Shown here one piece after another: positions 502-23,610 of a stretch of DNA of 33,571 nucleotides (position 1 is its first letter; each line of letters opens with the position of its first letter). This DNA comes from Reclinomonas americana ATCC 50394 (taxonomy: Eukaryota). The stretch covers positions 1 through 33,571 of the forward strand of contig PS015291.1 of assembly GCA_048213135.1 (NCBI GenBank). Reading direction: 5' to 3'. The position numbers were made by a program, and so were the translations under genes. A model generated the notes under the pieces. That model ran no database searches. It was not told where the DNA came from and saw only the letters and a list, made by a program, of their open reading frames with translations.

Positions 502-2651
502 TCAGTCACGTGGTGGCAGAGCGTGAGTGGGCCCACCGCGCGGTGGCACCCCCGCACCCTGTGATGTGGTCAGCAAGAGGAGGAGAAGGACAAGGAAGAG
601 GGCAAGACGGTGGACGAACCATGGTGACTGGTGCCGACGAGTGCGGCATTGTCACTCGTTGTGGTGAGGCCATGTACATGCCGGGGTAACTGCGCGAGGT
701 GCAATTGGTGTGTGTTTCTGTGCGCATCCTCTCATTGATCTTGTACGCACCCCACAGAGGCACCGTAGGCGAACTGGAATGGCGACTGCGGCATGGCGGG
801 TGCGTACACGGGGCCTTGTGGGCTGAACAGCATCATTGGCTGCGCGAAAGTTAGTGTGTGGCATGCCAGGCAGGCGAAGGGGGAGCGACAACACCTGCAT
901 GTGTCGCGGTGGCGGTGGCGGCGGTGGTGGTGGGGAAGAGAACATGTAGTGGCTGGGTGGTGGGTGGCGTGTGGGCGGGGAGGCAAACACCATCTCAGGC
1001 GACACCATGATGGTGGTGGTGCTGGCGGTGGTGGTCGTGGTGGCCATCGGCGGCGGTGACGACATTGTGGCGGTCATCATCGGGGCCAGGCGCGGAGGAG
1101 GAGCAGGAGCCACGTCGATGGAGGAGTCGTCGACGTATTCGGGCTGCGGAGGGCGGGTGAGGAAGGAGTGGCCTGTGCGTGCGATCGGGGTGCAGGTCGA
1201 CTCACCTTGTATGCAGGCGGTGACTCCCATGTGTGCCTGGCGCTGAAGGGAGGGAGGAGGGGGAAGGGAAGAGGGGGAAGGGGGAAGGGGTGAGGGAGGC
1301 AGGAGGGAGGAGAAGCGAGGAAAGTGAGGAGGGGGAGGGGAGTGACAGAGAGAGAGTGTGTGTGAGTGAGAAAGACAGACGCAACTGCGACCGAGAGGTG
1401 AAACGCGCGTCGGGTCGAGCGAATTGCACATGCAGCCGCATGCCAAACACCTCGCTGTTGTTCATGGTCTGTTGGCGCAGAGTGGGGTTCAGTTGTGAGA
1501 AGAACGGGAGGAGAGGAGGGGAATGGGACTCACAGCGACAGCATGCTTGGCATCCTTGTGCCGGACGAATGCGACAAAGCCGTACAGGAGACTCTCGTTG
1601 GTCTCCTTGTTCATCATGACGCGGCACGAGCTGATGGTGCCGAACTCCTTGAAGATCTGGTACAGTTGCTGCACGCGGATGGCGGTGAGAGATGTGTCGG
1701 CGACCGTGACTAACACACAAGACGAACCCGGCTGTCGATTGAGTGATGCAGGTTGCGGATGTACAAGTTGGCGACACGCGTGCGCGGCGACGGTCGGTAG
1801 CCGGGTCGGAAGCGCCTGTGACGAGAGCGGTGAGCACGGAGAGCATGGAGCATCGGATGCACGCGCGCGCGACACACCTGGCGGGAGACAGGATCATCTC
1901 GCGCCGGTACAGCCGCGTGTAGTTGAAGTAGTCAATGGCTTCCTCGGCCTGGGTGTTGAAGGTGAGCAGGAGAAGCGAAGGGAAGGTGAGGCAGCAGTAC
2001 CATTTCGGGAGTGAGGAACTTGACGTAGGCGTAGCCGCGTGATTCGAACGTGTCGGACGATCTGCGTGGCCTTCACGTGAGCATTCAGAAACACGACACG
2101 CAGATGCACACACACACACACCTCACGAGTTTGATGTTCACAACCAGCAGGCCAGGGTGTGCCGAGAAGAAGCTGCACAAAGACACAGTGAGAAAGGAGA
2201 ACAGACGAGGGAGAGCGAACAAGAAGGCAGTCAGTCGACTTTTGCAAGATGAGCTCATCGACAACGGGGTCGAGGTTGCTGCAGTGCACTGAGCCAGGCA
2301 CCATCAAGCCCTCTTCCTCTTCCTCTTCCTCTTCTTCCTCTTCCTCGTGGAATGCCTCCTCTCCTTCCTCGTCAAGCACGTTGTCTTGGTCGTCCACAGG
2401 CGACACCTCCCCACGCTGTGTGTGAGACAGAGAGTGACTTTTATGACAAGTTGCGTGATCAAAGTGACTTTCATGCTGACCACTGAGGCGGCCAATGCCG
2501 GCCACATTTCCTCTTGCTCTGCTCGCGTGTGTGTGGAGAGAGAGTGTGCAAGAGGAGGTTGGCGAGTGCGGCGGAGAGCGCGTGGAGTGTGTCGCGTGTG
2601 TGCCTTGCGACGTGAGCTGCTTGGTGGATCGTGTGGTGTGGTGTCGGCCAT
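502..2651 (-). CDS. RNA-binding protein with two RRM domains and a Pro/Thr/Met-rich C-terminal tail (ELAV/PABP-like RRMs), about 11 introns
   Basis: Spliced RRM1: SVHCSNLDPVVDELILQNFFSAHPGLLVVNIKLVRSSDTFESRGYAYVKFLTPEMAEEAIDYFN (RNP1 RGYAYVKF). RRM2: NLYIRNLHHSIDSRQLYQIFKEFGTISSCRVMMNKETNESLLYGFVAFVRHKDAKHAVATMNNSEVFGMRLHVQFA. All joins are GT-AG and in frame. Stop TGA at 502-504. Start (ATG 2651) and first-exon structure are less certain. Confidence 0.85.
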
Positions 2652-2900
2652 GAGTGGGTGTGTGTGTGTGAGAGAGTGAGAGAAGGGGGGAGGGGAGTCT
2701 GTGTGTGTGCTCTTTGCGTGTGTGTGTCGTAAAAGTGCAGGTTTGCGATGCGTGAAGCGCCAAAGTTGGTTGGTTGGGCGGCTGGTGGAAATTGAATGAG
2801 GTCGCGAGTCCACACCGGAAACGCAGCTGCATGATGGTAATGAGCTTAAGTGAGCACCAGCAGAATTGTGGCAGCATGTAAAAAGCGAGAAAATATTGAT

Positions 2901-3409: not shown

Positions 3410-6400
3410 CTACACATCCACCTTTAACGCCCCATTCAGCCGACCGATAAAGTTACCGCTGATCAGCACACTTCGACAGTCGACCGACAACAGCAACTGC
3501 GTCTCCAGTATGCCGACAGCATTCGAGCCCGTAACCCGATCGAGCTTGACGGTGCCGGTGGGTAATATGGACTCGAGCGCACGCTTCAGCCGACTCATCT
3601 GCTGCTCCGCACTCCGTTCTCCACCGCCTCCCTCCTCCTCATCATCATCGTCCTCGTCCTCGCCATCGACGCTGGTGTAGTGAATGACAATCTGCGACGA
3701 ATCGCCGTCGTACATCACCGTGTTGTGTCGGGCATTGTCGGCCGTAAAGTGTGACACCAACAGCAAGTCGAGATACGAGGCGAGGACGCGGGGATGCTGT
3801 TGTTGTTGCTGCTGCTGCTGCACCAGTGATGGTGGCGGTTCACTGCCGGCCGTGACCGGCCACATTGCTGCCGTGGCATTCACCATGGCTGGTGTCGACG
3901 TGGGGTGAGGGATCTAGAACTTGCATCACACACACTGAACTACAAACCCGTCGCCTGCAGTGCCTGCACCGAGAGCTCGTCGACTGCATGAGCGGCCGCG
4001 GTTTGCCTCTGTTCGAGTTGAATGAGGCGCTCGGAGGCGGCACGCATCTGTGATACATCATGAGCACATTGCCGGGCGATTTTTTGTTTTTTGTGACGCG
4101 ACTGTTTCCTCCCGTCGACGCTCTTCTGCGCGCGGCGAAGGTGACAGTCGACTGCGCTCGTGCTGCGCGAGATCCCCCAACTTGGATAGCTGGCCCACCA
4201 GTGAGTGACATCAACAAACGAACGAGGGACACGAAAGATGTGTGTACCTCTTGTCGGNNNNNNNNNNNNNNNNNNNNNNNNNNNNNNNNNNNNNNNNNNN
4301 NNNNNNNNNNNNNNNNNNNNNNNNNNNNNNNNNNNNNNNNNNNNNNNNNNNNNNNNNNNNNNNNNNNNNNNNNNNNNNNNNNNNNNNNNNNNNNNNNNNN
4401 NNNNNNNNNNNNNNNNNNNNNNNNNNNNNNNNNNNNNNNNNNNNNNNNNNNNNNNNNNNNNNNNNNNNNNNNNNNNNNNNNNNNNNNNNNNNNNNNNNNN
4501 NNNNNNNNNNNNNNNNNNNNNNNNNNNNNNNNNNNNNNNNNNNNNCGGCACATCATTATCACACAAATAAACTCACGCACCTCGTGCTCGGCATGCCGAC
4601 TGCGCATGGCCGCCCGTGTCTCCTTCAACTCATTCAACAGCTCCTGCTCACGTCGCTGCAGGTGGCGCACAGAGGCCTGGCACTGCGCCACGCGTGTCGA
4701 CCAGTCTGTGGTGTTCTCTTGCACAATGGCGGCAAGCGACTGCGTTCTCTCCCTCGCGATTTTCAGCGCCGCGTCGAGATGCTCCACGAAGCGGTCCCAG
4801 TCGTCGCTGGCAGGAATTGATCTAGCGCGCACACATCAGAGACGCAAGCGGTACGCGAGCCCTCATTGGCAAGACACAACGTACCGACGAACGAGCTGCG
4901 CATTGGCCTGTGCGAGACGCGAGGCGAATTCTTCCAGCCACGCTCCGTCCACCGGCACACATCCTCGCCTGTCGGAATCATCGTCAGGCGAGGCTGGCGG
5001 GCAGACAAGGAGTAAAAGAAAAGGTCACCTCTCTCCCGCGGCAGCCTCGGCCATGGCCATCAGGTCAGCTTGCACACTGCCAGCAATCTCGCCCAGTTGC
5101 CTGCGCAGCGCGCCCGTTTCACCCTGCTGTGCGGGGAGCACGGAGCCCGACGACAGTGTGCGAGCCACCTGCTGCAACAATGCCAGTCCTCGTGCGCCCG
5201 TCCACATTTCGATATCTTCATTCGCGGCGGCGGGTGAGGGGACACGCATCGTGGTACGCACGCACGCACGCACAAATTGTCGACGCAACTCTTGAGCAAG
5301 GCCAGGCAGTCCGCCTGCTGTAGCGCACTCTCGGTGGCCGTCCGCAAGTACCGTACATAGTCGCGCGCGTGCTGCTGAACGAGAGGTTCGTACGACGAGT
5401 TTGGCGTACTTGGCGACCCGGGGTTGCTTCGTGTCGATGGCGGTGATCGCGGCGGCACAGTGGATTTCACCGACGGAGACGTTGTAGTGGTGCCCGTTGC
5501 CGCAGAGGCCGCCGCGACTACCAACTCTGGTTGGAGACGCGCGTGTCGCCACGGTGCATCGCTCAGTTGCGAGTCCACGCGAGCAAACATGGAAGCCAGT
5601 GACCGCGAGGCGTCGCCTGGACACGCACACGCATTCATGGAACGATGAGTGTCGACAAAGAAACGCACAGTCGCCCCTCCCCCCAAAACACCAAAACACT
5701 GCCAACACACCATTGGTCGTGACGGTGCCGGGAGACCGCGACGGAGAAGATTCGCGCGCGGCATTTCCTTCAGTGTGCACCGGCGGCGGCACCACCGTCC
5801 ACATGGGTGGATCAAAAATGGTCAGTTTGAAGCGACGTTGGTTGAGCAAGTCCGCTGCGCGCGCCGTGTCAGCCACAAACAGTTATAGACTCGCCACCTT
5901 GCATATTGATTGCAAAACGCACCCACGGGCAAGTTGCAACAGAGACCGTCGGCATGATACTGCTGTCCGTCGAATCCACCCCACGAGAAGACGAGGACCG
6001 ACTGCGGACCTGTGTGACCCACAACGACGCCTGCGTGACCGCTGCGACCGCTTGGCAAATCCATGGGCGCCGGCAGCCGGTACGACAGCCAATAGTCGCG
6101 ACTAGAGGCCAGATCGCGAGACGTGCCTCCATTGGAGACGACCACCGTGTCTATTCGAGTGTTAGAGAGAGAGAGAGAGGAGGGGAAGAAGTGGAGCGGA
6201 GGGAGAATGCAGCAACTGTCAATGGAGCGCTTCAGCAGGAACGAGTCGTGGCAGCGACCGGCGGCCTCCCAGCCTCCCCACAGCATCACCGCCTGACTGT
6301 CTGCATGCAGGCCGACCGACACCATCGTGGCGTAGCAGCGCTTGGATGGCATCGCGTCACCCAGCAGCGTTACCATGCGCCACGTCCATGTCACTGCATG

Positions 6401-7526
6401 ATCGAGGAGGTCGGGAGAGTGGGTGCCACGTCTTCGAAAGTGAAGACACATACGAGGACGCAACACGTGTTGAGGATCCAGCAATCGTCCAGCATGTTGC
6501 CGTCCTCTCCGAGACCACCAAACACCAGCAGCGAATGCGCATCGACGAGTGCAGTCGAGTGGCCTTTGCGAGCTGGCGGGGACGGCCCATCGAATCGTAT
6601 CCGCGTGCCGAGTCTCGTGGCTGCGCAGCATGAGAACTCTGTCTGCGCAACCATCACCACCGCAGACGCAACTCGGATCAATCACAAACGCATCGGCGCA
6701 AAAGCCCGCCGTGTCAAACCCAAACAACACCACCACACGAATCGCCTTTTCCGCATCCACAGTCGACGGCGACGCAGCCGATGGTGACGACGACTGCTGC
6801 TGCGGCGTTGCTCCCAACGACAACAACGAGGGCGCACTGGGCGCCACCAGCACAGCATCGGCCGAGTGCCCGTTGCGCCCAGTCGGCACATCGCCACGCA
6901 GCGAGTACATTGACCAGCGGAAGCGCGATGTCGTTGCTGCAAGAAACAGTCACTTGTTACTGTACACAAGACTGGCATGCATGCCTGAGAGAGAGAGAGA
7001 GAGAGAGACGCAACAGTCGCGTTGCAGCACGTAGGCATCGTTGAGGTTCTGCCGCCCGTTCCACCCTCCAAAGAGCAAGTATCGACATCGCCGAGGAGGC
7101 GACACCGACACAAATGCATTCCACAGTGCTGTCATGCTGTGTCCCTCACGCGAGGTGGGCACATCGCCGCAGAACGAAGGCCACCGATACACACTTGTCA
7201 CTAACACACAGTGAAAGAGAGAGAGTAAGTGTGTGTGTGTGTGTGTCGAAGAGAGCGGAGTATTGTTCAACAAAATGCAATGCACACACGCTCACCTGGA
7301 TCCACTTCGACTCCATCGCCCAGGTGCCCGTGCGCATCCGAGTATCCGCCCCACACAAGCACATTCATCGCCTGCATGCACGAGAGACACGCGCGCAACA
7401 TTGTCAGCATTGTGCTCACTCTCTCTCTCTCTTTTTCTTCTTTGCTCGCTCACTCACATCCGAGTCGGTGCTGGCGACCAGCACCGCCGAGTGTCGATGT
7501 CGAGGGAAGACCACACGTGACTGCAT
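3410..7526 (-). CDS. Kelch-repeat beta-propeller (6 blades) + low-complexity linker + coiled-coil protein
   Basis: Six Kelch units after splicing: PRHRHSA..VWGG, TSREGHSM..LLFGGWNG, TGRNGHSA..VLFGFD, PARKGHST..LVFGGLG, SKRCYATM..MLWGGWE, SGRSGHAG..SWGGFDG. Heptad-rich exons follow (VRHLQRREQELLNELKETRAAMR; MRAASERLIQLEQRQ), and the last exon ends at stop 3410. One internal gap (4258-4545). The 5' end is either ATG 7526 or lies in the gap 7549-8028. Confidence 0.75.
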
Positions 7527-8028: not shown

Positions 8029-9160
8029 GAGGGTGACGCGTGTGAGCCAGCCAGTCACAACACGCAAAACACTTCACCCCCTACGCAACACTGTGGTTCC
8101 ACGACCCTCCAGGCAGTCCTTGAGCAGCAAGCCGAGCATGCTGTCCTCGTAGTGAATCTCGCTGGTGGGCCGGCGCTCGGAGATGTCGCGCAGCAGGGCG
8201 CGGAGCGTGCCGAGAGACGGGTTCGGGTTCATGTCGCGCTGTGCGCCCTTGTTCGGCTGTCGATCAATCAGCGAGTGCGCGAGGTCGACGAGCACAAGCT
8301 TGCCAGTGACCGACGTCTTGGTCAGCGGCCTGAACGAGTCCACGAACAGCGTGTACACAATGTGTGAGCGGTAGCTCTCGCGACGCAGCACCACCCGGTC
8401 AAAGAGATCCTGCTCGTGTCGGATTCGTCAGACTCGCGCAACAAACACACACATAAAATGTTACACAAACGAACCACCAGCGAGTCTTCGCTCTCCACTG
8501 TCAGCAACTTGACATTGCGCAGGAACACATGCTGGCCGTCTTGCTCGTAAACAATCGATTCTGTCGAGGCGACGACGTGCGCGTGAGATTTTCCATCAGA
8601 GACACTGTTCTTGTCATAAAGATGAATGCACTCACCGTTGGTGAACTCGTCGTCCGAGAGAATGTCGCGGACACGGTTCTCCAGCACCTCGATCACGCTA
8701 ACGCGCAGGCGCACCTGGCCGCGGTAGCTCAACTCCTGCCGCTTGGCCTCAATCTGTCGATATGCGCGACTGACAATGCCAGGCTCAGGGGCCAGGCCCT
8801 TGGCTGTCGGCTCGCGACCGTGCAGGGAGAACTCCTTGCAGGCGCTGCCGAGGCCGTAGAACAGCAGACCGACGGCGTTGCCCTCGAACAGCGAATCCAC
8901 CATGGGTTCCAGAGGCGCGTACACCTCCTGCAGCAAAAGGTGAGCGACGCGAGGAAAAAATGTCGAGTAAAGCGAGTGGGACGGCACTCACCGGCTGCGT
9001 GTTGAGGTGATCAAACACGTGGTCAAAGTCGTAGCTGCGCGCGGCGTGCTCCACAAAGGTAATGGAGCGCGCATTGTCCACATCCATGGCGGCGGTCGGG
9101 TTCGAGAACCACTCCGATCCGGTAAATGGTCGCACACGGCAGTACACCTTGACCGTACCC
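8029..9160 (-). other. Kinesin-like domain 6 (degenerate; end in gap)
   Basis: GTVKVYCRVRPF; YDFDHVFD; FYGLGSACKE; YRSHIVYT; GKLVLVDLAHS; IHYEDSMLGLLLKDCL. Confidence 0.85.
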
Positions 9161-12100
9161 GGACCGCGTGAAGCCGCTGCACGAGAAACGGGAAATCGGA
9201 GCGTGAGATATTGACCAGCCAGACTCCTTTTGATGATGACTGAGACGCAACGAGTATCCGACGCCTGCGAACACATCCACATGGTGGCGGGGGCCATTGG
9301 GCGCGTCGACGATGCCGGTGGTGATACCGACTTGTTCGCACGCGCGGACGATCGACCAGCGCTTGATGCGCTGCGCGGACCGGGGCTCACTGTGGAGCGC
9401 GACGATGCCGTGGGCTGGCTCGACGCTGACGGCGGTGCACTGGCTGCCGCAGTCACTGCCGGTGCCTGTGTTTGTGTGTGTGTGGTTCATCACTGTCAGC
9501 AGGAGTGCAATTGTGACACGAGAGTGCAACAACTCGGCTCTGCACGCACCCGCCGTGGACTTCTGGTGTGCTTCACGCCCGCAAACTTGAGCGTGTTCAG
9601 CGTTTCGTCCACATCGAGTGCCGACGGTGACACGTGCAGGAACAGACTGCACCGACAAACGTCAGACTCAACGATGACAACGACAAGCAGAACACTTCCG
9701 GCGCGTCACACACGCAACATGGTGCGGAATGTCCGGCTAAACACATGCTGCAACAGCATGGTCAGCTTGTTCTCGCGCCAGCGCGGCACACGGTGGGTCG
9801 ACGGATCCATCATGTTGCGCAGCAGGTTGCGCAGCGAGTTCAGCGACTGGTTGACGGCCACAGAATCGGCCTTGACCTGCAGGAGGAGAACAGAATCGAC
9901 ACTTGAGGAGTCGAACAATCGCTGCCACCACCGCACTCGAACAGACACGAAACTTCGATTTCAGTGCGCGTCTTGAACGCACGCTCGGAGCCGGCCAGAT
10001 CCGCAAAGAACAGCGAGCCCTGAGCCGGCGGTGAAGACGGATCCGACAGCGAACGGAGCGTCACCACCACGCGGAAGAGCAGGTGTGAACGATCGGGAGT
10101 GCGGCGAGACATGGCCTCCTCCAGGCACATCTGCATCACCGAGGTCAACAACAACTGGGGAAACCGAGACACACAATCGCCAGCGCCACTACCCACCATC
10201 GCATCCTCGAAGCAATCGACACGCATGTGAACTGCACCACGCACAAAAGCGCGATTGCGGCTCTTTGACATGTGCACCGTCAACTTGGGTACCAACTCGT
10301 CCTCATTCTCCGGCTCGTACAGCAGATCGGTAATGTCCTCGCCGCACACTTGCAGAATGCTCCACACCACGTCGGTCACCTCGAGATCGTAATCTGCTCA
10401 CAAACAGTGAGACGAGAGGAACACGACACCACTTCCATCCAGCAGCACACCCACCTTCCAGTTGGCTCGGATCTTCGCTGGCAATCGCCTCACGCTGCGC
10501 ACGGGTGCGCATGAAAATGCGGTTCAACGACCGTGCCAACAGACCTGGGTGCACAGGAATTCAGCAAAAGGCATGTCCACCGAAATCAAGATGCTTGCCA
10601 CACGTACCAGGATCACGCGGCTCGCCCAACATGGTGTGCGTCTTGCCGGCGCTCAACTGGCCGTACGAAATAATGCAGCTCTCGTGACCCGACAGGCACC
10701 ACTCGAGCACATCGTCCACTGAAGCAGCCGCCTCCTGCTCAGCAGCAACCATCGGTCAGTCATCGTCGAGAGGCAGCACGTCGGGGTCGACGCAACATCC
10801 TGAGTGACATTGTAGTCCAGGGCTCGGTCCACCGAGTAGTACTTGTACTCTTGCGACTTGACCTCGACACGCACAGTCTTCTCGTCCGGCATGTCGACAG
10901 CCGGCGAGTACTCACCATGCTCCATCTCCAGGCGGTTGAGTGGGCGCACACGGCAGAACACACGCAACGCGCCAGAACCGAGCAAGCCTGATGTGGATTC
11001 CAATCGTGAGAAACAGCGAGAGGCGAAAACACATTCGACGGGTACGCAACTGGCTCCTGACACGGCCGAATCGGGGCGCGGAATCGGAGACTCGCGCGGC
11101 GTTTGTGTGGCCAGCGTCGGGCGCGCCTTGATGCGGTGGCCGAGAATCGAGCGGCCAAAGATCATGGTCTGTCGGCTTCCCTCCACGTCACCCTCCGTCG
11201 GTGCCACATGCAGGAACACACTAATGGAACAAATCGCGGTGAGATGCACGCCGACAGCAACTGTATCAAAAAAGGCACGCACATGGACTTGGCCGGGGGC
11301 TGCAGGCAGTCGCGGCACACCATGGCGATCTTGCTCTCGCGCCACGGGGCACGTCCTTGAATGAGCTTGTGCAGCACATTCTGCAGAGCGGCGAGCGAGG
11401 CGTTCGGGTTGACCTCCTCCACGGCGGCCTGCGTCGGCACCAATCCAGTGGCCAGCTCCACGAAGCACAGCTTGCCCACGGTCTTGGTCTTGGTGCGCGG
11501 GTCAAACACCTCCACCCACAACGTCACCAAAATGTGCGCCTTGTACGTGCTGCGATGTGCCAGCGAGTCCGTCACCACCTCCATCACGTCGTGGTACGTG
11601 TCCACCGGCACGACTTCGACATGCTCCAAGTACACCTCGCCCGACGCCATCATGCGCACCGACGGCTGACGAGCGGCAGCCAAGCTGCGGCGCTTGGCAT
11701 CGGCGCTCTTCTCGGCCGACGAGCTCGTCACAAAGTCGGGTCTTCGTGGCCGCGACTTGCGCGGAGCATCGTCCGTTGTCAACACGGCAGAAGTCTTGCG
11801 CAAGTGATCCTTGGTCTCCTTGGCCATCAAATCGACCATGGTGTCACCCTGCTCGCACATTGACAGAATGAGCGCCTCTAATCTTGCAATGGTACAAAAC
11901 ACACTGTCATGTAGCGCGCCACGCACCCGCAGCTCCAAGACAGACGCGCGAATGGTGATTGTCTCCGTCTCCTCGTCGACCTTGCGCTGGAAGAAGCGAT
12001 GGCACACCAACCCCAACATCTCTGGTGGTCACACGCAAACACTGGGCGTCAGCCAAACGAAAAAGCAAAAAAAACTTGTAGAAAAACAAGTACACACCAC

Positions 12101-15100
12101 TGGAGAAGCTGCTCTCCTCCAACGCCTTGCCACTGTCCATGGAGCCGGCGCAGAAAATGGCAGCGCCGTAGCCGTTCATGGCATGCGTCGCCAGTTCGTC
12201 GACGTGCTTCTCCGCCGACTGTTACGCGCACACAACAAGAGCGGTGAGATGGAACATTGCCGCTGCATGTGCTACCCGTGCGTGCAACTCNNNNNNNNNN
12301 NNNNNNNNNNNNNNNNNNNNNNNNNNNNNNNNNNNNNNNNNNNNNNNNNNNNNNNNNNNNNNNNNNNNNNNNNNNNNNNNNNNNNNNNNNNNNNNNNNNN
12401 NNNNNNNNNNNNNNNNNNNNNNNNNNNNNNNNNNNNNNNNNNNNNNNNNNNNNNNNNNNNNNNNNNNNNNNNNNNNNNNNNNNNNNNNNNNNNNNNNNNN
12501 NNNNNNNNNNNNNNNNNNNNNNNNNNNNNNNNNNNNNNNNNNNNNNNNNNNNNNNNNNNNNNNNNNNNNNNNNACCAGTGAGCACACAGCGAACAGAGAA
12601 ACATGAATCAGTCGGCAATCCGTCGCAACTCCAGTGGCTTCCATGTTCTCCAGCGGCAGCACCAACGCGTGCTCCACGTACACCTCACCGGCGCGAGTGA
12701 CGCGCAGTGCGAGGCGCTCCGACGGCGGCACGTCCGTGTCACTGTTCTCAAACGCCGTGCGCAGCAGGTCCTCAATCTCGTCCGACGGCGTCAAGCGCAC
12801 CACCGAGGCGCGCACCGACACCACAGTGCCCGACGACTGACGCATCGATTCGGCCTGCTCGAACAGCTTGCTCAGCGACAGCGGCAGCACACCTACCACC
12901 AGAACATGTGAGAAACGCAATCCAGCAATGGATGGGAAACGCACTTCATCACTCACCCCACTCGCTCTCGCCCAACAACGTGAACGTCTTGCCAGAGCCG
13001 GCATCGCCGTAGAACAGCATCGAGGAGTCGTTGCCCTGCAGGGCCCAGTCCACCAGCTCGACGGCGCTACCAAACACCTCCGACTGCGTGGCCTCCGGGC
13101 CATAGGCGTGATCCATCAGGAACGACTTGCCGTTGTTGAGGTAGACAGTGTCCTCGTCGGCGATACGCGAAATGCCAACGCGATCGACCACAGTCGGATC
13201 ATTGTCCTCTTCCTCGTTCAGCGGGCGCACACGAGAAATCACACGAATGTCACCCGGCGACTCGGCAGCCTCCGACTTGCCAGCCGCAATAAACTGGTAC
13301 GTCGGCTTGACCGACTCGTACTTCTGTCGCATTGACCACCAACAAAAGTTAGTTCACCACAGCGCAAGAGCAGGGTCGAGCGCAAGGGCACGAAACTCGG
13401 CCAGCAAGCTCGCGGCGAATGTCTGCAAACTGCATCGTCAGCAGGTTGTCCTCCAAGTCGTGCTCCATTGGTGAAATATGCGTGTAGAGCAGAATGCGCG
13501 AGTTGAACTCCATGCAATCGCGGACGAGGTGCGTCAGCTTGTTCTCGCGGAAGCGCGGGTACGACTGCGACTTGCCGGCGTCCATGATGCAGCGCATCGT
13601 CGATCGCAGGTGCATGAGGGTCTGGTTGGCCACGGTGCTGCCGGAGGTGATGTCATCGCGGTAGTGTGCCTGCTCAGGCGTCGGCAAATCCACCAAGGCG
13701 ACCTTGCCCACCAGCTCGTCACCCGTGCGTCGGTTGGTCGTCTGCACGTAAATAATGATCACCAAGCTCGTCAGCAGGCGTGCGACACCGTGCTCCAGCG
13801 CGCGGAGGCGACGGGCGACGCCCGGCACGCGCTGCGCGTGGAGAACAAAGGAGAAAATAATGATGTGAGACCATCCATCAGGTGAAGCAGAAAAATAGTC
13901 ATGTCGACGCACCCACAGCTCCTCGGCATCCATGCGCTCGGTGACCACATTCTCCAAAATCGTCTCGCCATTCGCGGCGGTGCGGATGACAACCTTTTCC
14001 TGCACGAGGCATTACTGTGTCAAGGCAGGATTGCAAACACGACGGCCACCGGTGAAGCAAACCTTGGCAGAGCGACGGCCCACCAGGTCGGAAATCACAT
14101 CGCCGTCCACATCGAGCACCGCACACGTCCAGCGAATGTTCTCAATGTCGGGATGATCGGGGGCGCTGTCGCGAATCTGGCGCGTGAGCTCGCTGATCAG
14201 GTGACCAAAGAGTCCCTGGTTCGGCTCGTCCGGCGTGCCAAACATCGACGCCAGCTTGTCGCCAGACTTGGCGCCATACGCAAACACCGACGAGGAACGG
14301 CCGTCCAGAGCACCGTCAATCAGGCTCTTGAAGCGCGCACGAATCACGTCGTCGTCGACGGTCGGCGGGAAACCCGTGTCCACCTTGAACGTGGATCCGT
14401 CAATGAGGTCGACCTGGTGGCCGTTGAAGCCCGAGACCACCACCGACTGCACAGCAGAGGCGAAAAGTGAGTGGCGGCGAGAATAAAACAAGAAAAAATA
14501 TAGCACGTTCTCCTACAACTCACCGTCGGTGGCTCCTCGTTCGCCTGTCCGCGCTCCTCCTCGGCGTACTGGCGCACACGAGTAACGACCTTGACGTCGC
14601 CGAAAACGCGCTCGCCGTCGGCTCCGAAACCGAGCTGGTTCTGCGAGCCCTCACCAGCACCGGCCGGACCCATTTGCTCGGCCACGCGCGACTTGATCGA
14701 GCGCGAGCTCACCGGTCCACTGGCGCCATCGCCACGCTGCTGCTGCTGGCCCTCGTCTCCGTACCAGCCAAAGTGCAGCGTCTGACGCGTCTTCTCCAGC
14801 TCGCTGGCGGTGGGTGCAACCGTCAAAATGACGGCCAGCGACGCCGGTTCCGTGAAAAAGTCCTTCAGGAACATGGTCAGCTTGCTTTCGCGGTAGCGCA
14901 CCACCGGCTGATCGCCCGCATGCGCCGGCGGCTCAGCCAGTGCGCGGAGCACGTTGCGCGTTGCCGTCACCGACTGGTTGGTGCGAATGCCCTCGGGACT
15001 CAACTGTGTGGCAATAAAGTGAATACGTGGCGAGCGCAATAGCAACGCGGGGGAAAAGAGGCGACGCACCACCATGCGTCCGGCGCGATTCGTGCGCACA

Positions 15101-18050
15101 GCCGGCACCAAATCCACGCACACAATGCGGGTCTCGAACACCGTGGCCTCTGCGATGAAGAGAAAAGCGAATCAGGTGACGAGCGAGAAATCGATCTTCG
15201 TGCGCGCATACTCAACTGTCTTCCTCGCCCGGCATCCATGTGGACACGAACACGTTGAACGTCACGACCACGTGGGCGACAGATCGCAGGGCCGCCTCGC
15301 CGTCGGCGTTGATGAATGACACAAACGTGCGCGCGCCAAACGACTGCTGCAGTGTCTCCTGTAGTCGACAGATTGAGAACGACAAGGAAGGACAAAAGGA
15401 GGAGAGTCAAAGAGAACCAACCTTCAGCACATCGGCATCCTCGCCCGGACGCTCATCGAGGCCCTTGAAGATCACCGAGTGACCAATGACGCGGACGCTG
15501 ATTTTGCTGTCCTCGCCGCGCGAAGCCTTGATGAGGTCATTCGCTTCGTCGCCGCACATTTGCGCCACTGAGTAGTTGAAGGCCAGCGAGCCGTTCTCTC
15601 CCGGCTCACCAAACTCGAACGATGCCGGATCACGCTCCAGTCGGTCACGTTGTGAGCACAGCTTCTGGCACACCGTCAACAGGAACTCTGCACGTCGAGT
15701 AAGCAGACTGCCCGTTATCAAACAGACTGCGCGCGCACAGAGACGTACCCTCAAAGACGCGACCACGGCCAGACTCCACGTGGCCGTGGAAAATCAGGCA
15801 TCGGTTGTGTCCGCGCAGAGCATCCACGACGGCTGCACTGGTGATCTCCTCGACCACCTCACGCTTGGTGTCCGACGACACAACGCGATCGTAGTCGTAG
15901 CGGTGTCCGTCGGGGAGCACCACAGTGTTGCCGTCGACCACCTCGTAGACCTGCATGGGGGGGTGAGTGAGAGTGAGTGTGGAGAATATGTGCTTTTGCG
16001 ACAGTGAGGGGGAAGCGCACCGGACGAGCGTTGCCATTGTCTGACTCCTTTTGCGTGAAATTGCGAGAAATGGTCTGCACCGAGAACGGGCGACGCCACT
16101 CCGAGCCATCCTCGAGCTGCACGGGCGTGCGACCACAGAACACATTGATCTCTGGCTCGACAACCTCCACCGCTGCGCACGAAAAAAATGCGCAGTGAGC
16201 GTCTTTCAGCAGTCAGTGAGTGTGAAGAGCGCACGCAACGAGCAGAGGGTGCAGGCGGCGGGCGCTGGACCACAGGCGCTGGAGCCTCGCGCTGCTGCTG
16301 CTGCTGCTGTGGGGGCGCAGCTTGTGGAGCCTTCGGCGGTGACGGAGGCTTCTGCTTCGGGCTCTCAGGCTGCACGTTCCACCAACAGTGTCAATGACCA
16401 CACAGACAACAGTACACACACACACACACACGCAAGATCAAACACACCTTTTCAGGGCTGGACTCGGGCGTCGGGTACTCTGGCGGTGGGGGCGCTTGCT
16501 TCTTCGGCTCCGGCGGCGGAGGCGTGTAACGCAGCTCCTCTTCCGACTCGGCACCGCCCTCGCCCTCCTCACCGTACTCGTACACGTAGTAGTCCTCGTC
16601 AACGAGCTCTTCCTCCACAGCCGCCGCGCTCTTTTGTACCTTGGGCGATTGGCTGTCGCTGTGGTGCGAACACACTCATCGGTGAGCGCCGACTAGCGAA
16701 TAGACGAAAAAATCAAGATCAACAAAACCACGCACCGTGGCTGCTCGCGCATCGTAATCGACTGCGGCTGCGACGACTGCTGTGCGGATCCAGAAGCGGC
16801 ACTGACCACACCGCTCTTCACCTCGGATGCCGCCGGCTGCGCACCCTTGTTGTCGGCGTTCTTCACCGACGGCAATCCGGTGCTCCACACCTCATTGGAG
16901 TCCACGTCGGTGGTGTCACCATCGGTTTCCTCCTCCTCCTCACCGCCACCCTCCTCGTAGTACTCGTAAAAGACCTCCTCGCCACCGACCTCGGTCTGCT
17001 GTACCTCTTGTGTCTGGCGTGAAGCGTCCTCCGCAGCACGACGAGNNNNNNNNNNNNNNNNNNNNNNNNNNNNNNNNNNNNNNNNNNNNNNNNNNNNNNN
17101 NNNNNNNNNNNNNNNNNNNNNNNNNNNNNNNNNNNNNNNNNNNNNNNNNNNNNNNNNNNNNNNNNNNNNNNNNNNNNNNNNNNNNNNNNNNNNNNNNNNN
17201 NNNNNNNNNNNNNNNNNNNNNNNNNNNNNNNNNNNNNNNNNNNNNNNNNNNNNNNNACGTCCACATACTTGGTCGTGGTGATATACCGCGTGGTGACTGT
17301 GTGGGCGTTTCCCTGCGCATCACGTTCCGTGTGCTCCTGAATATCCTCCGACACCTGCGTCTTGTCGTCCAGGTTGTATTGCTGCGCGTGCGCACAAAGG
17401 TGAGTGCAAGAGCGGGGGGAGGAGAAGGGGGAGAGGGAGAGGGAGAGGGAGAGGGAGAGGGAGAGGGAGAGGGAGAGGGAGAGGGAGAGAAGGGAGGGAG
17501 AAAGGGTGGGAGGAGTTGCAGAGTGTGTGCAGGAGAGAGACACAGAGCGTGTGAGAGAGTGTGAGAGTGTGTGCCCAAGGGAGAGAGAGAAGGAGAATCG
17601 CTGTTCCAACGGCACCCACCCTGTGCATTTCGCGATCGCCTGCTGGCGGCAGCTCCTCCTACACATGGATCGATCACCACAGTCAACAACGCGAACGTTC
17701 CACCAGACACACGAGCGATGAGTATACACAACTGCATTCGCCACGACGCGCACTTCCTGCTCGACCTCCTCAGGCTACACAGAACAGACACACACAAGTG
17801 AGGAACACAACGAGGATGACAACCAAGAGACCAGTGATCGCTCACTTCCTCAACGACCTCCTCCACCAGCGGCTTGGGCTGGCCTGCGCATCATGATGAT
17901 CACGGATAAGGATTCGCCTTTGGTGCATGACGACACATGCATGATTCGCACACACACGAACCGCGAGCAAGTTGGCGTGACATCGCAGCTTAAACAAGAG
18001 TCGCAGAAAAACGAACTTTGCTCTTGCTCTGCTCTCTCGCTCCCTTTGCT
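8029..18050 (-). CDS. Giant multi-exon protein: acidic/Pro-rich N-terminus followed by at least six tandem kinesin motor(-like) domains (kinesin-14/KCBP-like)
   Basis: Repeated kinesin landmarks: beta1 (I/V)(R/K)VxxRVR, P-loop region, GKLx(L/F)VDL, (Y/W/F)RExKL, FLHV(S/A)P..ETLxTLxF. Domains 1-2 and 4-5 are joined within single open frames. Domains 2-3 and 5-6 are joined by in-frame GT-AG introns (13324-13396; 9466-9549). The 3-4 junction, the start and the stop lie in or near gaps. Confidence 0.85.
9575..10975 (-). other. Kinesin-like domain 5 (best conserved; possibly catalytic)
   Basis: GALRVFCRVRPLN; SYGQLSAGKTHTM; DRSHLLF; FADLAGSER; VNQSLNSL; PRWRENKLTMLL; FLHVSPSALDVDETLNTLKFA. Confidence 0.9.
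11150..12290 (-). other. Kinesin-like domain 4 (degenerate; start in gap)
   Basis: NGYGAAIFCAGSMDSGKA; SVLELRGDTMVDLM; GEVYLEHVEVVPV; GKLCFVELATG; PWRESKIAMVCRD; IVFLHVAP. Confidence 0.85.
12574..13257 (-). other. Kinesin-like domain 3 (N-terminal half visible; intact P-loop)
   Basis: GDIRVISRVRPLN; FYGDAGSGKTFTL; GVLPLSLSKLF; GEVYVEHALVLPL. The remainder runs into gap 12291-12573. Confidence 0.85.
13410..14601 (-). other. Kinesin-like domain 2 (degenerate)
   Basis: GDVKVVTRVR; AYGAKSGDK; GKVALVDLPTPE; PRFRENKLTHLVRD; YTHISPMEHDLEDNLLTMQFA. Confidence 0.85.
14765..16152 (-). other. Kinesin-like domain 1 (degenerate)
   Basis: EINVFCGRTP; P-loop region FHGHVESGRG; switch II region VDLVPAV; VRYRESKLTMFLKD; ILTVAPTASELEKTRQTLHF. 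Confidence 0.8.
17425..17500. repeat. (GAGAGG)n microsatellite inside an intron
   Basis: About 10 hexamer copies, directly visible. Confidence 0.95.
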
Positions 18051-19057
18051 GCAACACAAACAAACGAGTTGAGTGGGCGAGAATCGTGACAGAAAGATCA
18101 GTGCGAATCGCAACATGCAATGCACATCGCGCAAGACACAGTGACACGCTTATATAACGAGATGGAGATAGAGAAGAAGAAGAAGAGCAGCACTGCATGT
18201 GCGTCAGTGTGCAAGAAGAGTGTGACAGTGACCGACATGGCGGAGAGGCACTGTGTGACACACACACATGCGCACAAAGAGATGCAACGCGCGCTGTGTG
18301 CTGCACGCGGGGGACGACATGCACAGTGTCTGCGTGCGCGAACATGCACAGAGGCAAGAGAACTGCGCGGNNNNNNNNNNNNNNNNNNNNNNNNNNNNNN
18401 NNNNNNNNNNNNNNNNNNNNNNNNNNNNNNNNNNNNNNNNNNNNNNNNNNNNNNNNNNNNNNNNNNNNNNNNNNNNNNNNNNNNNNNNNNNNNNNNNNNN
18501 NNNNNNNNNNNNNNNNNNNNNNNNNNNNNNNNNNNNNNNNNNNNNNNNNNNNNNNNNNNNNNNNNNNNNNNNNNNNNNNNNNNNNNNNNNNNNNNNNNNN
18601 NNNNNNNNNNNNNNNNNNNNNNNNNNNNNNNNNNNNNNNNNNNNNNNNNNNNNNNNNNNNNNNNNNNNNNNNNNNNNNNNNNNNNNNNNNNNNNNNNNNN
18701 NNNNNNNNNNNNNNNNNNNNNNNNNNNNNNNNNNNNNNNNNNNNNNNNNNNNNNNNNNNNNNNNNNNNNNNNNNNNNNNNNNNNNNNNNNNNNNNNNNNN
18801 NNNNNNNNNNNNNNNNNNNNNNNNNNNNNNNNNNNNNNNNNNNNNNNNNNNNNNNNNNNNNNNNNNNNNNNNNNNNNNNNNNNNNNNNNNNNNNNNNNNN
18901 NNNNNNNNNNNNNNNNNNNNNNNNNNNNNNNNNNNNNNNNNNNNNNNNNNNNNNNNNNNNNNNNNNNNNNNNNNNNNNNNNNNNNNNNNNNNNNNNNNNN
19001 NNNNNNNNNNNNNNNNTAATCCGTGTGCGAAACTGAAACCTTGGTGGTGTGTGGTAG

Positions 19058-22000
19058 GCTGTGCGGGCTCGACTACTTGCACAAGCAGCATGTGTGCGTT
19101 GTCAGTCGCCTTCCGTGACTTGGTGGTGTGCCTCGCTTGCTGATACAGACGACCACGTGCAGGGTGCATCGCGATCTGAAGGGCAAGAACGTGCTGATGG
19201 TGAATGGCGCCGATGGGACGGTGATCAAGCTGGCCGACTTTGGCTGCAGCACGCTGCTGTCGACTGGTCGGCAGGCTCTGACTGCTGGTGTCGGCACGCC
19301 CGGTTGGACGGCTCCCGAGGTGTTCAAGGGCGTCGGCTACGACACCAAGGTCTGCATGTGTGTGTCTGGGCATCGAGCGAATGTCGTGCGCCCCACTCAC
19401 GCCATCGTGATCAGGTGGACATTTGGAGTCTGGGTGCCACCGTGCTCGAGTTGTTCACCGGGCAGGTGCCGTACTCGGAGCTCACCAATGTGGTTTGTGG
19501 CAATGGTGGATCGTGCTGCACCGTCCATAACTTTGACACTGACAGCGACGACATGCGCAGCCGGCCGTGATTTACAAAATGATGACAACGGCAGAGCCGC
19601 CACTGATTCCGGCCGACTTGTCGGCGCTGGCCAAGGACTTTCTCTTGCTATGCTTCAGAGCGTTGCGTGGTTGCGCTGTTGTTCCTCGTCGTCCTTGCTT
19701 TGATTTCTCACGACGACGACAACAGAAATCCCGCCGATCGACCCACCGCCGAGGACCTCATGTCGCATCCGTTCATCACCAGTCATCCACGCCACGCTGA
19801 CGCCGGGCCGCTGCCACACGCACCGGTTAGGCTGCAGAGTGCACGTTTTGTCTGTTGCCCACGATGCACTCATCCCCGTCTCACACATCACACAGCCGTC
19901 ACTAGGCGGATCGGGATCCAGCTCGGGTGAGTCGCCGCCATCGCTCTTGTTTTCCCGCCTATCGCTGACACTCATGTACTTTGTGTGCTGGTCGGTGCAG
20001 GATCAGGAAGCATGCACAGTCTCATGTCGAACAGGAGAGGTGGGTCGCTCCATCCTTTGCACTCGAAATTCACTCCAATCACACCTCTCCGTGTAGTCGA
20101 AAGCTCCGACTTGATACACCAGATGCACCGAGTGGCCGCCATTCCCATCAATGTGAGCATCAGCCCCGTGGGTCGATCGCCCACTGCCTCGTCGTCATCC
20201 GCCGGCGATTTTCGAGTTGAGTGTGCTGCTACCACGTCGTCCTCTCCTCCATTCGACTCACCTGCTTCACTGCACTCTTCTGGGCGCAGTTGTACACCTT
20301 GGTGCGCAAGGCACCGCACGCACCACGCTGGATTTTCCCGTCACACGCCGCCATGGCCGAGTCGTTGATCGACAAGTTGGTGCACGACGGATGCATGCGA
20401 GGTGCGTGATCTCCGTCTTCTCCCACTCTCCCTCTCTGTGTGCTCTGACACTGCAGGTGCACCAGGCGCGACTGGCATTATTGTGATTGAGGGACTTGCC
20501 GGCTTTGGCAAGAGCACTCTCGCATCATTAATCATCGATCGCATGTGGGAGCGCAAGCTGGTGCGCGGACACGTGCTGTACGTGGATCTGTGCGGTCATT
20601 TGGAGAGTCAGCAACATCGCACCAGTGCCAGCGCCGTGGAGCAGCTCTTTTTGCAGCTGAGTGCACCACGTGCCGAGTGGCTGCTGAAACAGAACACGGA
20701 GCCGGCGGTGTTCATGCAGTCGTTTTACGCGGCACTGGCTGTGGAGGCGCCGGAGGAGCGCGCCGTGGTGTTTCTCGACAATGTCGGGTCCGCCGAGCAG
20801 CTCAAGAGAATCATGCCGCGCGACATTACGCACGCATGTTGCGTGGGCGAAGGCATCACTGCTGCCGTCGCTCCGTGTCGTGAGTTCTCATTGTGATCGT
20901 GCAGATGGCGGCGCGTGCGGACCACTGTTTCTGGCCACCAGCCGACACTCCATCTCGCCGTCGCTGGCCGCCGACCTGCCGCGCGACGTGTCGCTGGCCA
21001 CTGCGCGTACGGAGCAGCTCACCGAGGGAGACTTGACGGCGTTTGTCGAGTTCCACCACCCCGATGCCGACGAGCATGTGCGCCGCCTCCTCCTCTCCAT
21101 GAAGTATCCGTTTGCACTCGGCACTGTGTCGAGGTGCTCCTGTTATGCGTTGTCCTCGTCGATCTGTGTCTCGTTTCACTCACACAAGTATTGCCAGCGC
21201 ACTAAAACGCGAAGGAGCCTTCTTGTCGTCGTCGGAACTGGAGGCTCTGTGTGCACAATTGAACCGCGAAGCCTTTGAGGATGTGCTGGACTCGACAGTG
21301 CGCCAGCTGACTCAACCGCAGCGACGCGCATTGCTGTCGTTGGCTGCGGTGGAGCGACTGCCGGCCGTCAGTATGAGGCTAATTGTGGTGCTGGCGGCGG
21401 AGGTGGTGGATCCGCTGCCGTCAAGTGACGGTGCGGCAATAGCGACCTCACCGCGTTCTCGTGACACCATGGTGGTGACGTACCTGCGTGGCTTGCTGGC
21501 CGATCACTCGCTCCATGTGGTCGAGCGAAACGGGCATTGCATCGTGGCGTGGTCGTCGAGTTCACCGGAAGACCGTGACACCGACCTGCCGACGTGTGTC
21601 ACCTTCAACACGCACAACCTGTATCCGGACTACTTCCGCCTGCGGTGGCCTCGAGCATTGACACAGGCGCAGGGCACACTCATGCGTCTGTTGTCGGCCC
21701 TCATCCGCAAGGCGACGTTGCAGGAGAAGGCCCAGGCGCAGTTGATGAGCATGTTTGGCGAGCACGTCAAGGCGCTGTGGGACTACTTGGCCGACGGCCG
21801 CTTCGACAGCGACTTGCCGTTCTGGCTAAAGACAATCGACGCGGTGTGCGAGGCAGCGCGTGTCACGCCAGCGAGATTCCGCGAGCGAGTTGGCGACGTG
21901 CTGCGCGCCATCTCCACGCCTGCAGTCACCAGCGCGATGGAGGCCGACGACAACGTGGCCGCCGCGGTGCACAAGTCGCGCAGTCTGCTGTACCATCTGG

Positions 22001-23610
22001 GTTTGGATGAACGGCGGTCGATGGAGGAGATGGAGGAGAGCTTGCGGCTGCGCATGCGCGCGCATCCCGGTGATTCTGCACCGGAGGTGATTCAGGCGCA
22101 GCACGACCTCGCCACTGCGTGCCGCCGCTGTCCTGCACACGTGGAGAAAGCAGTGGCCCTGTTCCGCGCCGTGCACGCTGCGCGCAGGGCGCAATTGGGT
22201 GAGGTGCGAAAGTTTTCGAGGGTACCAGGGAGTTTAGATTTGTTGGGTAACTCACTGACTATTGTATCAGGATCACTGCGACACACTCGGCGTGGCTGGT
22301 GACCTGGCCGAGGCCCTTCATTTGTCCGGCAACTTCCAGGAGGCCTCCAAGATACTGGTGTCGGTGGTGCAAAAGTGGCAGGCGCTGCACGGGGCAGCTG
22401 ATCCGCTTACGCTCACGGCACTCAGCCATTTGGCTTCCGTGTTGCGCTCTCAGGGCTTTTTGTCCGAGGCCGCAAAGCTGTACGAGAGGGTGCGTACTCT
22501 GTTTGAGGAGGGTCTGTCTCCTCATTCGGTAGCGTACTGAAAGGAGTGGCAATAGGTTCGTGTGGGACTGGAGACCGCACTCGGTCCGAATCACAGCGAT
22601 GTGCTGGCCGCAATCAACAACCTGGCCACGGCAAGTTTGCACCCTGCACGAATGGTGCCGACTTTTGAACGTGCTCTCACTGTTCTGTGCGTGTGCAGAC
22701 GTGGCGTGAATTGGGGCGAGTCGCCGAGGCCGTCACACTCCTCACGGACTTGGCCGACACGAAGCGTCGTTTGCTCGGCGCCGAACACCCGGACACGCTC
22801 ACTACTTGTTTCGTGTTTGACGCCACGTCCATGATTCCTTCATCGTTCTGTCGCTCACCCAGTCCACGTAGTGAACAACCTGGCACTGGCCATGGAGGCA
22901 CAGGAGCCACCGGACTTGGCCGGGGCGGCGCGACTGCACGCCATGGTCCTCGAAACCCGCACACGCACACTCAGCAGCGCCCATCCAGACACGTTGCGTG
23001 ACGATTGTTGGCGTCGCTGGTGAATGTGTGCCGCTCACGTGTATATATGATCGTCGGCAGTATCGTGTCGGCCAATAATCTGGCGGTTCTCTTGCGACGG
23101 CAGCATCACCACAGTGAGGCAATTTCGTTGCTTCGGGAGAGTGCCGAACGCGCGCAACACATTCTGGGTCCCGACCACCACTTGGCGCTTACGGTGCGCG
23201 CCAATCTGGCCTCTGTACTCGACGAGGCTGGATTTGTGGAAGAAGCCGTGGGGATGAACGAGGATGTGTTGGAGCGTCGGCGACGTGTTCTCGGTCCCCT
23301 GCATCCCAATGTTGCGTGCTGCAGGCTGGTGATGTTGTCAATGGTACGTGCCAGCAGCACTGACTGTGGTCAGCGGGTACAGACACTGGTATCCATGGTG
23401 AACTTGGCGTTGCTGTACCACGAGCGGCAGCAACGCACGGCAGACGCCATTCCGCTCTTGTCGACCGTGCTCGAGGAGCGCAAGCGCACGCTCGGCGACG
23501 ATCATCCGCTGACACGGGCCGTGCGCGTGGATCTCGACAACGTGCGCAGCTCTTTACCTGCCGCACCAGCAGCAGTAACAGCACCGCCACCACCACCACC
23601 ACCACCATAG
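19058..23610 (+). CDS. Ser/Thr kinase (MAP3K/STE11-Cdc15-like) fused to a STAND NB-ARC-type NTPase and C-terminal TPR repeats (NLR-like architecture); kinase N-lobe in gap 18371-19016
   Basis: Kinase: GLDYLHKQHVVHRDLKGKN, KLADFG, GTPGWTAPE, VDIWSLG, RPTAEDLMSHPF. NTPase: Walker A GLAGFGKS, Walker B VVFLDNV, sensor-like LATSR, YPFAL. TPRs: LGxxHPDTLxxxNNLA-type repeats. All exons splice in frame to TAG at 23608-23610. Confidence 0.85.

Follow-up and report, generated by a model that had tools for sequence, protein, structure and literature searches.

How does an intron begin when the exon before it does not end in G? This question is raised by a 33,571-base stretch of Reclinomonas americana ATCC 50394 (contig PS015291.1, positions 1 to 33,571), called the window below. 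The window is eukaryotic nuclear DNA, interrupted by 8 runs of N; the remaining bases are about 58% G+C. It is gene-dense, and its genes carry many short introns. After exons that end in G, the intron starts with GTNNGT, mostly GTGCGT or GTGAGT. After exons that end in A, C or T, it nearly always starts with GT-T-GCGT, more rarely with GTTGAGT or GTTTCGT. This extra-T donor (5' splice site) is the ordinary motif plus one T, with the conserved G and T moved from +5/+6 to +6/+7. We are highly confident that the class is real in the window.

The extra-T class and the last exon base

The first-pass annotation of this DNA had listed 22 such donors, and all 22 positions carry the word given for them on the strand given: 15 GTTGCGT, 3 GTTTCGT, 2 GTTGAGT, 1 GTTGTGT and 1 GTCGCGT. 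We defined the class by C or T at +3 together with G+6 and T+7. In our curated set of 78 donors it makes up 22 (28%), in agreement with the earlier estimate of about a quarter. The claim that it always follows a non-G base also holds (last exon base A in 10, T in 8, C in 4 and G in none), as does the statement that canonical donors mostly follow G (50 of the other 56). Fisher's exact test on extra-T against other donors by exon-end G gives p = 2.7e-14 for the 78 donors. With nine weak or unverifiable rows removed, 16 of 16 class donors follow non-G and 49 of 53 others follow G (p = 2.5e-12). In a single gene (gene T below), six extra-T and ten ordinary donors show no exception (p = 0.00012).

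The same association was recovered by two dynamic-programming parses made without the hypothesis. Their inputs were GT...AG ends, codon usage and, in one of them, the branch motif. The class motif appeared in 11 of 59 and 12 of 67 predicted introns, every one after non-G. A first crude parse, in which introns of up to 350 nucleotides (nt) were allowed, missed small exons and was discarded.

The +6G/+7T form follows none of the 50 exons that end in G. Across the whole window the motif stands on 124 of 4123 GT dinucleotides, 19 of them after G; the word is therefore missing from donors after G, not from the DNA. GTTGCGT occurs 18 times in the window, and in 100 dinucleotide-preserving shuffles its mean count was 7.59 (sd 2.45, maximum 14), with none reaching 18. 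Fifteen of the 18 copies are listed donors. A further copy at 10962-10968 (minus strand) lies within a kinesin exon coding ALRVFCRVRPL and is not a donor in the model, so the word alone is insufficient for splicing. Two copies lie outside the gene models, at 2450 (plus strand, after A) and 26226 (plus strand, after T). They are followed by branch-like CTGAC and TTGAC and by an AG after 39 and 53 nt, and may be introns in untranslated regions.

Within the class, position +3 is T in 21/22, the base at +5 is mostly C (19 C, 2 A, 1 T), and G at +6 and T at +7 are found in 22/22. The other donors have G at +5 in 48/56. The G-ending class is variable on the intron side (for example GTCTCT, GTACAC and GTGCTC), whereas the non-G class is nearly invariant. 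The converse of the non-G rule fails: six other donors follow non-G, three of them class-like (6216, 12629 and 2239) and three plain ordinary donors after T (1533, 7457 and 11282; a slash before GT, GU or GC marks the exon-intron boundary below).

About ten doubtful candidates were kept out of the 78. They are 32756 or 32696 (an ambiguous pair, T/GTGGCC or G/GTGCGA); one at about 33494 (G/GTTTGAC, at the window end); 1205 (G/GTGAGT, in a low-complexity tail); one at about 17846 (A/GTGAGC, without an anchored frame); two in-frame stretches, of 42 nt near 10200 (G/GTGGGT) and of 51 nt at 11926 (G/GTGCGT); upstream cactin-gene candidates near gaps; and the GTTGCGT copies at 2450 and 26226. If real, they would add two ordinary donors after non-G and two members of the extra-T class. 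The 42-nt and 51-nt stretches (10160-10201 and 11876-11926, minus strand) are stop-free, end in AG and may be very short or optional introns. Without the 42-nt stretch, the kinesin motor would presumably be closer to the usual length.

Placement of the junctions and nature of the introns

Spliced models were built for four genes, each checked by translation to be stop-free. Further donors were read in a coiled-coil gene, a cactin gene and a tandem pair of paralogues. The four modelled genes are:

19164-23610, plus strand: gene T, with protein kinase, NACHT/NB-ARC-kind P-loop NTPase and TPR_10 repeats; 16 introns; stop-free model, Pfam
17043-8090, minus strand: gene K, apparently a tandem series of at least five kinesin-like motor domains; modelled in two parts, one on either side of a gap; Pfam
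ATG at 7526 to 4581 and beyond, minus strand: gene C, with Kelch repeats and coiled coil; Pfam
2418-1386, minus strand: RRM gene; stop-free model

The extra-T sites are as follows:

19662..19725, plus strand: intron C/GTTGCGT, 64 nt, phase 2, in the gene T kinase domain; stop-free model; CTCAC at -16
20216..20289, plus strand: intron A/GTTGAGT, 74 nt, phase 0; gene T stop-free model; sole frame-keeping GT donor
20838..20904, plus strand: intron T/GTTGCGT, 67 nt, phase 1, downstream of the P-loop NTPase exon; gene T model; read-through hits a stop
22808..22871, plus strand: intron T/GTTTCGT, 64 nt, phase 1, within TPR; TPR_10 exact
22993..23060, plus strand: intron C/GTTGCGT, 68 nt, phase 2, within TPR; TPR_10 42, 1 (split codon), 2; read-through hits a stop
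23311..23382, plus strand: intron T/GTTGCGT, 72 nt, phase 0, length a multiple of three, stop-free; TPR_10 42 then 1; retention would put 24 residues within the repeat
16173..16239, minus strand: intron C/GTTGCGT, 67 nt, phase 1, gene K model; CTCAC at -24; in-frame alternatives need a later AG
15150..15216, minus strand: intron A/GTTGAGT, 67 nt, phase 1; immediate stop on read-through; a single alternative GT, 31 nt upstream, which would require different acceptors
13324..13396, minus strand: intron A/GTTTCGT, 73 nt, phase 0; gene K model; read-through hits a stop
10988..11050, minus strand: intron A/GTTGCGT, 63 nt, length a multiple of three, stop-free, in a linker; signals only (donor, CTCAC at -20, CAG end), no homology check possible
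10738..10796, minus strand: intron T/GTTGCGT, 59 nt, phase 0; kinesin profile position 56/57
9877..9953, minus strand: intron A/GTTTCGT, 77 nt, phase 0, after DLAGSE; kinesin 246 to 248, 3 residues extrapolated on each side
9647..9718, minus strand: intron T/GTTGCGT, 72 nt, phase 2; kinesin 298, 299, 300
9177..9251, minus strand: intron C/GTTGCGT, 75 nt, length a multiple of three, stop-free, in a linker; signals only (CTCAC at -28, CAG end)
8029..8089, minus strand: intron start T/GTTGCGT, acceptor in a gap; exon ends at kinesin position 298, like 9718 and 11282
6937..7014, minus strand: intron T/GTTGCGT, 78 nt, phase 1, Kelch repeat boundary; gene C model; read-through hits a stop
6621..6672, minus strand: intron A/GTTGCGT, 52 nt, phase 1, Kelch repeat boundary; gene C model, paralogous position; several GT alternatives
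6394..6464, minus strand: intron T/GTTGCGT, 71 nt, phase 1, Kelch repeat boundary; PF24681 continuity
5216..5289, minus strand: intron A/GTTGCGT, 74 nt, phase 1; gene C model; ambiguous, with an in-phase GTGCGT 24 nt downstream
4048..4102, minus strand: candidate intron A/GTCGCGT, 55 nt; weak, in a coiled-coil region where alternatives exist
1243..1385, minus strand: candidate intron A/GTTGCGT, 143 nt; weak, in a low-complexity tail, with no branch motif in range and many alternatives
17659..17732, minus strand: candidate intron A/GTTGTGT, 74 nt; weak, read by eye, with short flanking exons that lack homology

The class-like candidates and the exceptions counted among the other 56 donors are:

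6151..6216, minus strand: further candidate A/GTTGCTG, 66 nt, Kelch boundary; needed by the gene C model; next exon starts at PF24681 position 88; absent from the first-pass list
12574..12629, minus strand: further candidate A/GTTGCGA, acceptor in a gap; the exon frame ends there
2173..2239, minus strand: further candidate A/GTCGACT, 67 nt, before the first RRM; needed by the stop-free RRM gene model
11221..11282, minus strand: exception T/GTGCGT; exon end at kinesin 298 (5 residues extrapolated), as for 9718 and 8089; spacing 26
1469..1533, minus strand: exception T/GTGAGT within RRM; exon matches RRM_1 14-56; RRM gene model
7372..7457, minus strand: exception T/GTGAGT, first intron of the Kelch gene; stop-free model from ATG 7526

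Exons were matched to Pfam singly, and the profile coordinates on the two sides of a junction were then compared, with a few unaligned end residues extrapolated. For every site, each GT/GC...AG pair that preserves the flanking frames was enumerated. Seven junctions are continuous in profile coordinates: five of them exactly, the other two to within one position. In TPR_10, HP(D/N) occupies positions 40-42 and NNLA positions 6-9, and 22808, 22993 and 23311 are exactly continuous. At 9718 the kinesin profile goes from 298 (end of the upstream exon) through 299 (split codon) to 300 (start of the next exon). Across 6464, PF24681 runs through 86, 87 (split codon) and 88. The kinesin profile runs from 246 to 248 at 9953. 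At 10796 Microtub_bd is continuous to within one position, and kinesin 57 is where the next exon begins. Ordinary-donor controls are equally continuous (cactin 44/45 at 24036; Pkinase 176 to 178 at 19350). By exact Pfam continuity or paralogue spacing, the strongest sites are 9718, 22808, 22993, 23311 and 6464.

Spacing among paralogues gives a second measure. The spacing from E(S/N)K to (S/A)P is 26 residues in four motor copies, two of which lack an intron there. At 9718 the GTTGCGT donor yields 26 residues; with the GC 3 nt downstream the spacing becomes 27, and with the GT 9 nt downstream 29. Such a GC, 3 nt downstream and in phase, is present at every GTTGCGT site. There is no alternative frame-keeping GT donor at 7014, 20216 and 20838. 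For 19662 the GT alternatives require an acceptor 28 nt further on, and the exons on either side fall below the length needed for a Pfam match. A one-base slide of both intron ends was considered and rejected; it would need non-GT/AG ends at 22 introns. The features for which four sites had been flagged earlier as weaker are confirmed: 9251, 11050 and 23311 are stop-free with lengths that are multiples of three, and the acceptor of 8089 falls within the gap 7549-8028.

Apart from the donor, the two kinds of intron are alike. All 19 extra-T introns with a known acceptor start with GT and end with AG, 16 of them with CAG. YTVAY is found 8-45 nt before the end in 16/19 extra-T introns (median -20) and in 39/40 others. 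The branch motif CTSAC (CTCAC or CTGAC), about 20 nt before the end, and the CAG acceptor occur in both classes, and the median lengths are 68 nt (extra-T) and 66 nt (other). Removal of the extra-T introns restores a single open frame and domain continuity in the stop-free models. Both donor kinds thus belong to otherwise alike short U2-type GT-AG introns.

Introns at the same place in duplicated units allow the donor to be compared directly. At kinesin position 298, three motor copies have T/GTGCGT (11282) or T/GTTGCGT (9718 and 8089). At position 56/57, two copies have T/GTTGCGT (10796) and G/GTGAGT (8991). Five successive Kelch repeats have same-place phase-1 introns: G/GTGAGC at 7295; GTTGCGT after T, A and T at 7014, 6672 and 6464; and A/GTTGCTG at 6216. 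The kinesin and Kelch introns show that the donor type tracks the last exon base within duplicated units, and one paralogous pair is distinguished by the extra T only.

Reading of the donor

We regard it as evenly balanced whether both kinds of donor are read in one recognition frame that is shifted by one base in the extra-T introns, with cleavage at the sole GT and with a predicted changed U1 or second reader. Both donor kinds would present one seven-letter word, G-(G/T)-T-G-C-G-T, to the first recogniser, which is most likely the 5' end of the U1 small nuclear RNA (snRNA). The first G of this word would be the last exon base in ordinary introns and the intron's own first G in extra-T introns. 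Recognition would have moved by one base, as at the rare mammalian shifted-register donors. Cleavage would be fixed later, by U5, U6 and Prp8, before the sole GT of the word. The 5' end of U1 is predicted to differ from ACUUACCUG near positions 5 and 6, and perhaps 8; failing that, a second reader is predicted. This prediction follows from the constrained G-C-G core and from its weak predicted pairing to standard U1. Rfam at gathering scores gave no match in the window, for U1 and U6 or any other RNA gene.

Aligned from the G, the G/GTGCGT and /GTTGCGT classes agree in 6/7 consensus columns (G, G/T, T, G, C, G, T). Since the word is common to both classes, a single recognition frame is favoured as the simplest reading. 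A shifted frame accounts for three features: the +6G form is never found after G, +3 is T, and the class occurs where no G is available from the exon. None of the three is accounted for by a looped-out U. In particular, T at +3 is required by a shift and not by a bulge.

Pairing energies were calculated with RNAduplex for the standard U1 5' end. They are -8.5 kcal/mol for G/GUGCGU, -2.6 for U/GUGCGU, -1.4 to -1.8 for GUUGCGU after U or A, and -7.9 for GUUGAGU. Among the class words only GUUGAGU pairs with standard U1 in the shifted register, and the organism's own U1 may differ from the standard. The conserved C at +5 (19/22) has no partner in standard U1. The first-pass annotation had proposed that this lineage made the shifted or bulged U1 register a major intron class, possibly with altered U1, U6 or U1C. 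The frequent class and its near-complete link to non-G exon ends are borne out in the window; such pairing as the cause finds no support in the energies of -1.4 to -1.8 kcal/mol for the main word. The suggested alteration thereby becomes a prediction: a changed U1 5' end, a second U1-like RNA, or a rule imposed by U5, U6 or proteins.

Several observations count against a shifted frame. GUUGCGU after non-G pairs with standard U1 worse than U/GUGCGU does, and by base-pair count the shifted form is no richer than plain H/GUGCGU; known U1 pairing strength does not explain the preference for the extra U. Position -2 of ordinary donors is G in 11/56, from which about 4 G in 22 would be expected at -1 of the class, and none is observed. 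Two weak candidates (4102 and 2239) have C at +3, closer to a bulge. The extra T is not obligatory, given the three ordinary donors after T. The sample is one window of 33.6 kb with about 8 genes, and 6 of the 22 sites (1385, 4102, 5289, 9251, 11050 and 17732) remain candidates not verifiable from sequence. Every junction was placed by reading frames and profiles. Curation was done with the hypothesis in mind, and the choice among in-phase alternatives could bias the count.

A broader form of the shifted-frame reading is possible but doubtful. The initial recognition of introns may have been rewired in this lineage. The 5' end of its U1 would no longer be the near-universal ACUUACCUG, or the lineage would have two kinds of U1 that differ at the 5' end. 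The G-U core would effectively require a G six places upstream, from exon or intron, and a quarter or more of the introns would be read one base out of the register of other eukaryotes.

A bulged register is rather unlikely. Here U1, and later U6, would pair ordinarily with G+1 and U+2, one U at +2/+3 would be looped out, and G+6/U+7 would act as +5/+6. The human U1 registers in the accessible part of PMC4856993 include one with a single base bulged at +3 (or +2), the C at +3 of 4102 and 2239 is permitted, and the helix of the 5' splice site with U6 must accommodate the extra base somehow. However, a bulge costs energy and gives no reason for the restriction to non-G exon ends. An exon-end G should still help a bulged duplex, yet G is at -1 in 0/22 of this class against 50/56 of the other. 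The T at +3 in 21/22 also speaks against it, and RNAduplex finds no stable bulged duplex with standard U1.

We consider two separate readers unlikely: a second U1-like snRNA complementary to GUUGCGU for the non-G introns and ordinary U1 for the rest, with U2, U5 and U6 shared. The far greater uniformity of the class would fit (15/22 exactly GTTGCGT, with G+6 and T+7 invariant), as would the +5 C left unpaired by standard U1 and the branch and acceptor signals common to both classes. But a dedicated reader leaves the absence of G at -1 unexplained, and near-identical words in one frame are more simply explained by one reader.

Misplaced boundaries or chance are very unlikely. The true donors would be nearby GT or GC sites, for example GTT/GCGT, or some stretches would not be introns. 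The in-phase GC at every GTTGCGT invites this explanation, as do the other in-frame GT...AG pairs at most sites and the stop-free lengths of 9251 and 11050, which are multiples of three. The GC option, however, adds one residue, breaking TPR_10 continuity at three junctions and giving the kinesin spacing of 27 instead of 26; these exact spacings disfavour it. The 7-mer is moreover enriched (18 against 7.6) and is found at frame breaks, on the coding strand; the lone clear GC donor (22631) is the usual G/GCAAGT, and three sites have no other GT option.

That the introns are introner copies bringing their own donor, or minor U12-type introns, fits the uniform donor but is practically negligible: an 11-mer beyond +9 is shared in 0/171 intron pairs, so the extra-T introns are not copies of a mobile element, and RTATCCTT is in none of the 78 donors, while the branch motif CTSAC is common to both classes.

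Surrounding features and known systems

The genes that carry the introns have features of their own. Gene T combines a protein kinase, a NACHT/NB-ARC-type NTPase and TPR_10, and its 5' end is lost in the gap 18371-19016. We take this architecture (kinase, P-loop NTPase, TPR_10) to be typical of fungal NLR-like proteins. The gene also contains one GC-AG intron (22631-22698, plus strand) in the usual strong context G/GCAAGT, required by the stop-free model and by the TPR spacing. In gene K the motors are joined by low-complexity linkers and only some exons pass the Pfam kinesin cut-off; in several motors switch II (VDLVPAVR, VDLPTPEQ, VELATGLV) or the P-loop is degenerate. Cactin is a splicing factor; its C-terminal domain lies at 23726-24270 (minus strand) and is interrupted by an ordinary G/GTACGT intron at profile position 44/45.

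Two tandem paralogues at 27019-28680 and 29312-31018 (plus strand) have long exons without a Pfam match and a Cys/His-rich stretch near the second intron. Both have three introns at matching places, every donor being ordinary and after G. Upstream of the first, at 26200-26560 (plus strand), there are about three copies of a unit of about 120 nt, with the pattern …cttgtgtgatcgc.agaa.gcaaa.aga…gaattcga…caactctttg…gcaagcagca…. Most assembly gaps are bordered by long microsatellites of (GGGAGA)n, (GA)n and (CA)n (17400-17500, 24704-24800, 25900-26024, 31470-31503 and 31887-31990), which probably caused the gaps.

Searches outside the window gave little. Protein searches with single exons, against longer proteins only, returned nothing at E <= 0.001, which is weak evidence. 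A protein atlas query with the cactin exon gave one lead (0.76, to a bacterial cluster) that was not usable. Among 80 metagenome cactin loci kept, the six that were read have no extra-T donors. The best locus has 74% identity, so there is no close relative among the 80. GTTGCGT in the long metagenome cactin loci is at most 2.6-fold over the base-composition estimate.

As a frequent class, GUUGCGU-type donors are a new form of the known shifted-register theme, for which the shift mechanism is the best explanation, yet unproven. Shifted and bulged registers are so far known only as rare mammalian exceptions, proved intron by intron. If true, a genome with such a register as a main class, switched by a single exon base, would offer a natural experiment on how U1, U5 and U6 share the choice of cleavage site, on the trade-off between exon-end G and +5G, and on the evolvability of the U1 5' end. 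For annotation, a gene finder that has learned donors from six intron positions will put one in four of this organism's donors in the wrong place, breaking many gene models.

The donor can be set beside four known systems. U12-type introns have the donor RTATCCTT and the branch motif TCCTTRAC. Like the extra-T class they are a minority with a very uniform donor. They have their own donor and branch motif, whereas the extra-T class shares its branch motif with the major class.

A shifted U1 register at rare mammalian 5' splice sites was reportedly described by Roca and Krainer in 2009, and one-base-bulge U1 registers in man are said to have been described by Roca et al. in 2012. The mammalian shifted-register donors also start with GU-U and have the conserved purine and U one place further in. 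As in the shifted frame favoured here, G+1 can replace the exon-end G opposite C9 of U1, and cleavage stays at GU. They are a handful of GUUAAGU-type sites that pair well with standard U1. The window, in contrast, has GUUGCGU at 22 of 78 donors, with poor predicted pairing to standard U1 and a tie to the non-G exon end. The shifted register is drawn in Fig. 1B of PMC4856993 (Tan et al. 2016), where Roca and Krainer are cited. In the part of that paper accessible to us, all validated noncanonical U1 registers in man account for 3119 of 201,541 donors (1.5%), with 54 curated sites for the +2/+3 bulge. The human bulge and asymmetric-loop registers, like the donors here, have an extra nucleotide between GU and the equivalent of +5G; the same part of PMC4856993 describes no such dependence of bulge registers on the last exon base.

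A tunicate paper (PMC13326754) raises a shifted register only as a possibility. In the literature on donor motifs, registers and classes we found no lineage with a GUUGCGU-type class; supplements were not covered, and a genome paper could mention one.

The last comparison is with the two main kinds of 5' splice site in animals and plants, AG//GUNNN (U5-leaning) and NN//GURAG (U6-leaning), as given in the accessible part of PMC11732430. This split, which is attributed to U5 and U6, is also called seesaw linkage, according to the accessible parts of PMC11732430, PMC9803359 and PMC11842720. There, as here, an exon-end G is traded against a strict intron-side motif, and the non-G class is the strict one. 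In animals and plants, however, G is at +5 in both classes, whereas in the window the non-G class has its G at +6, through the extra U.

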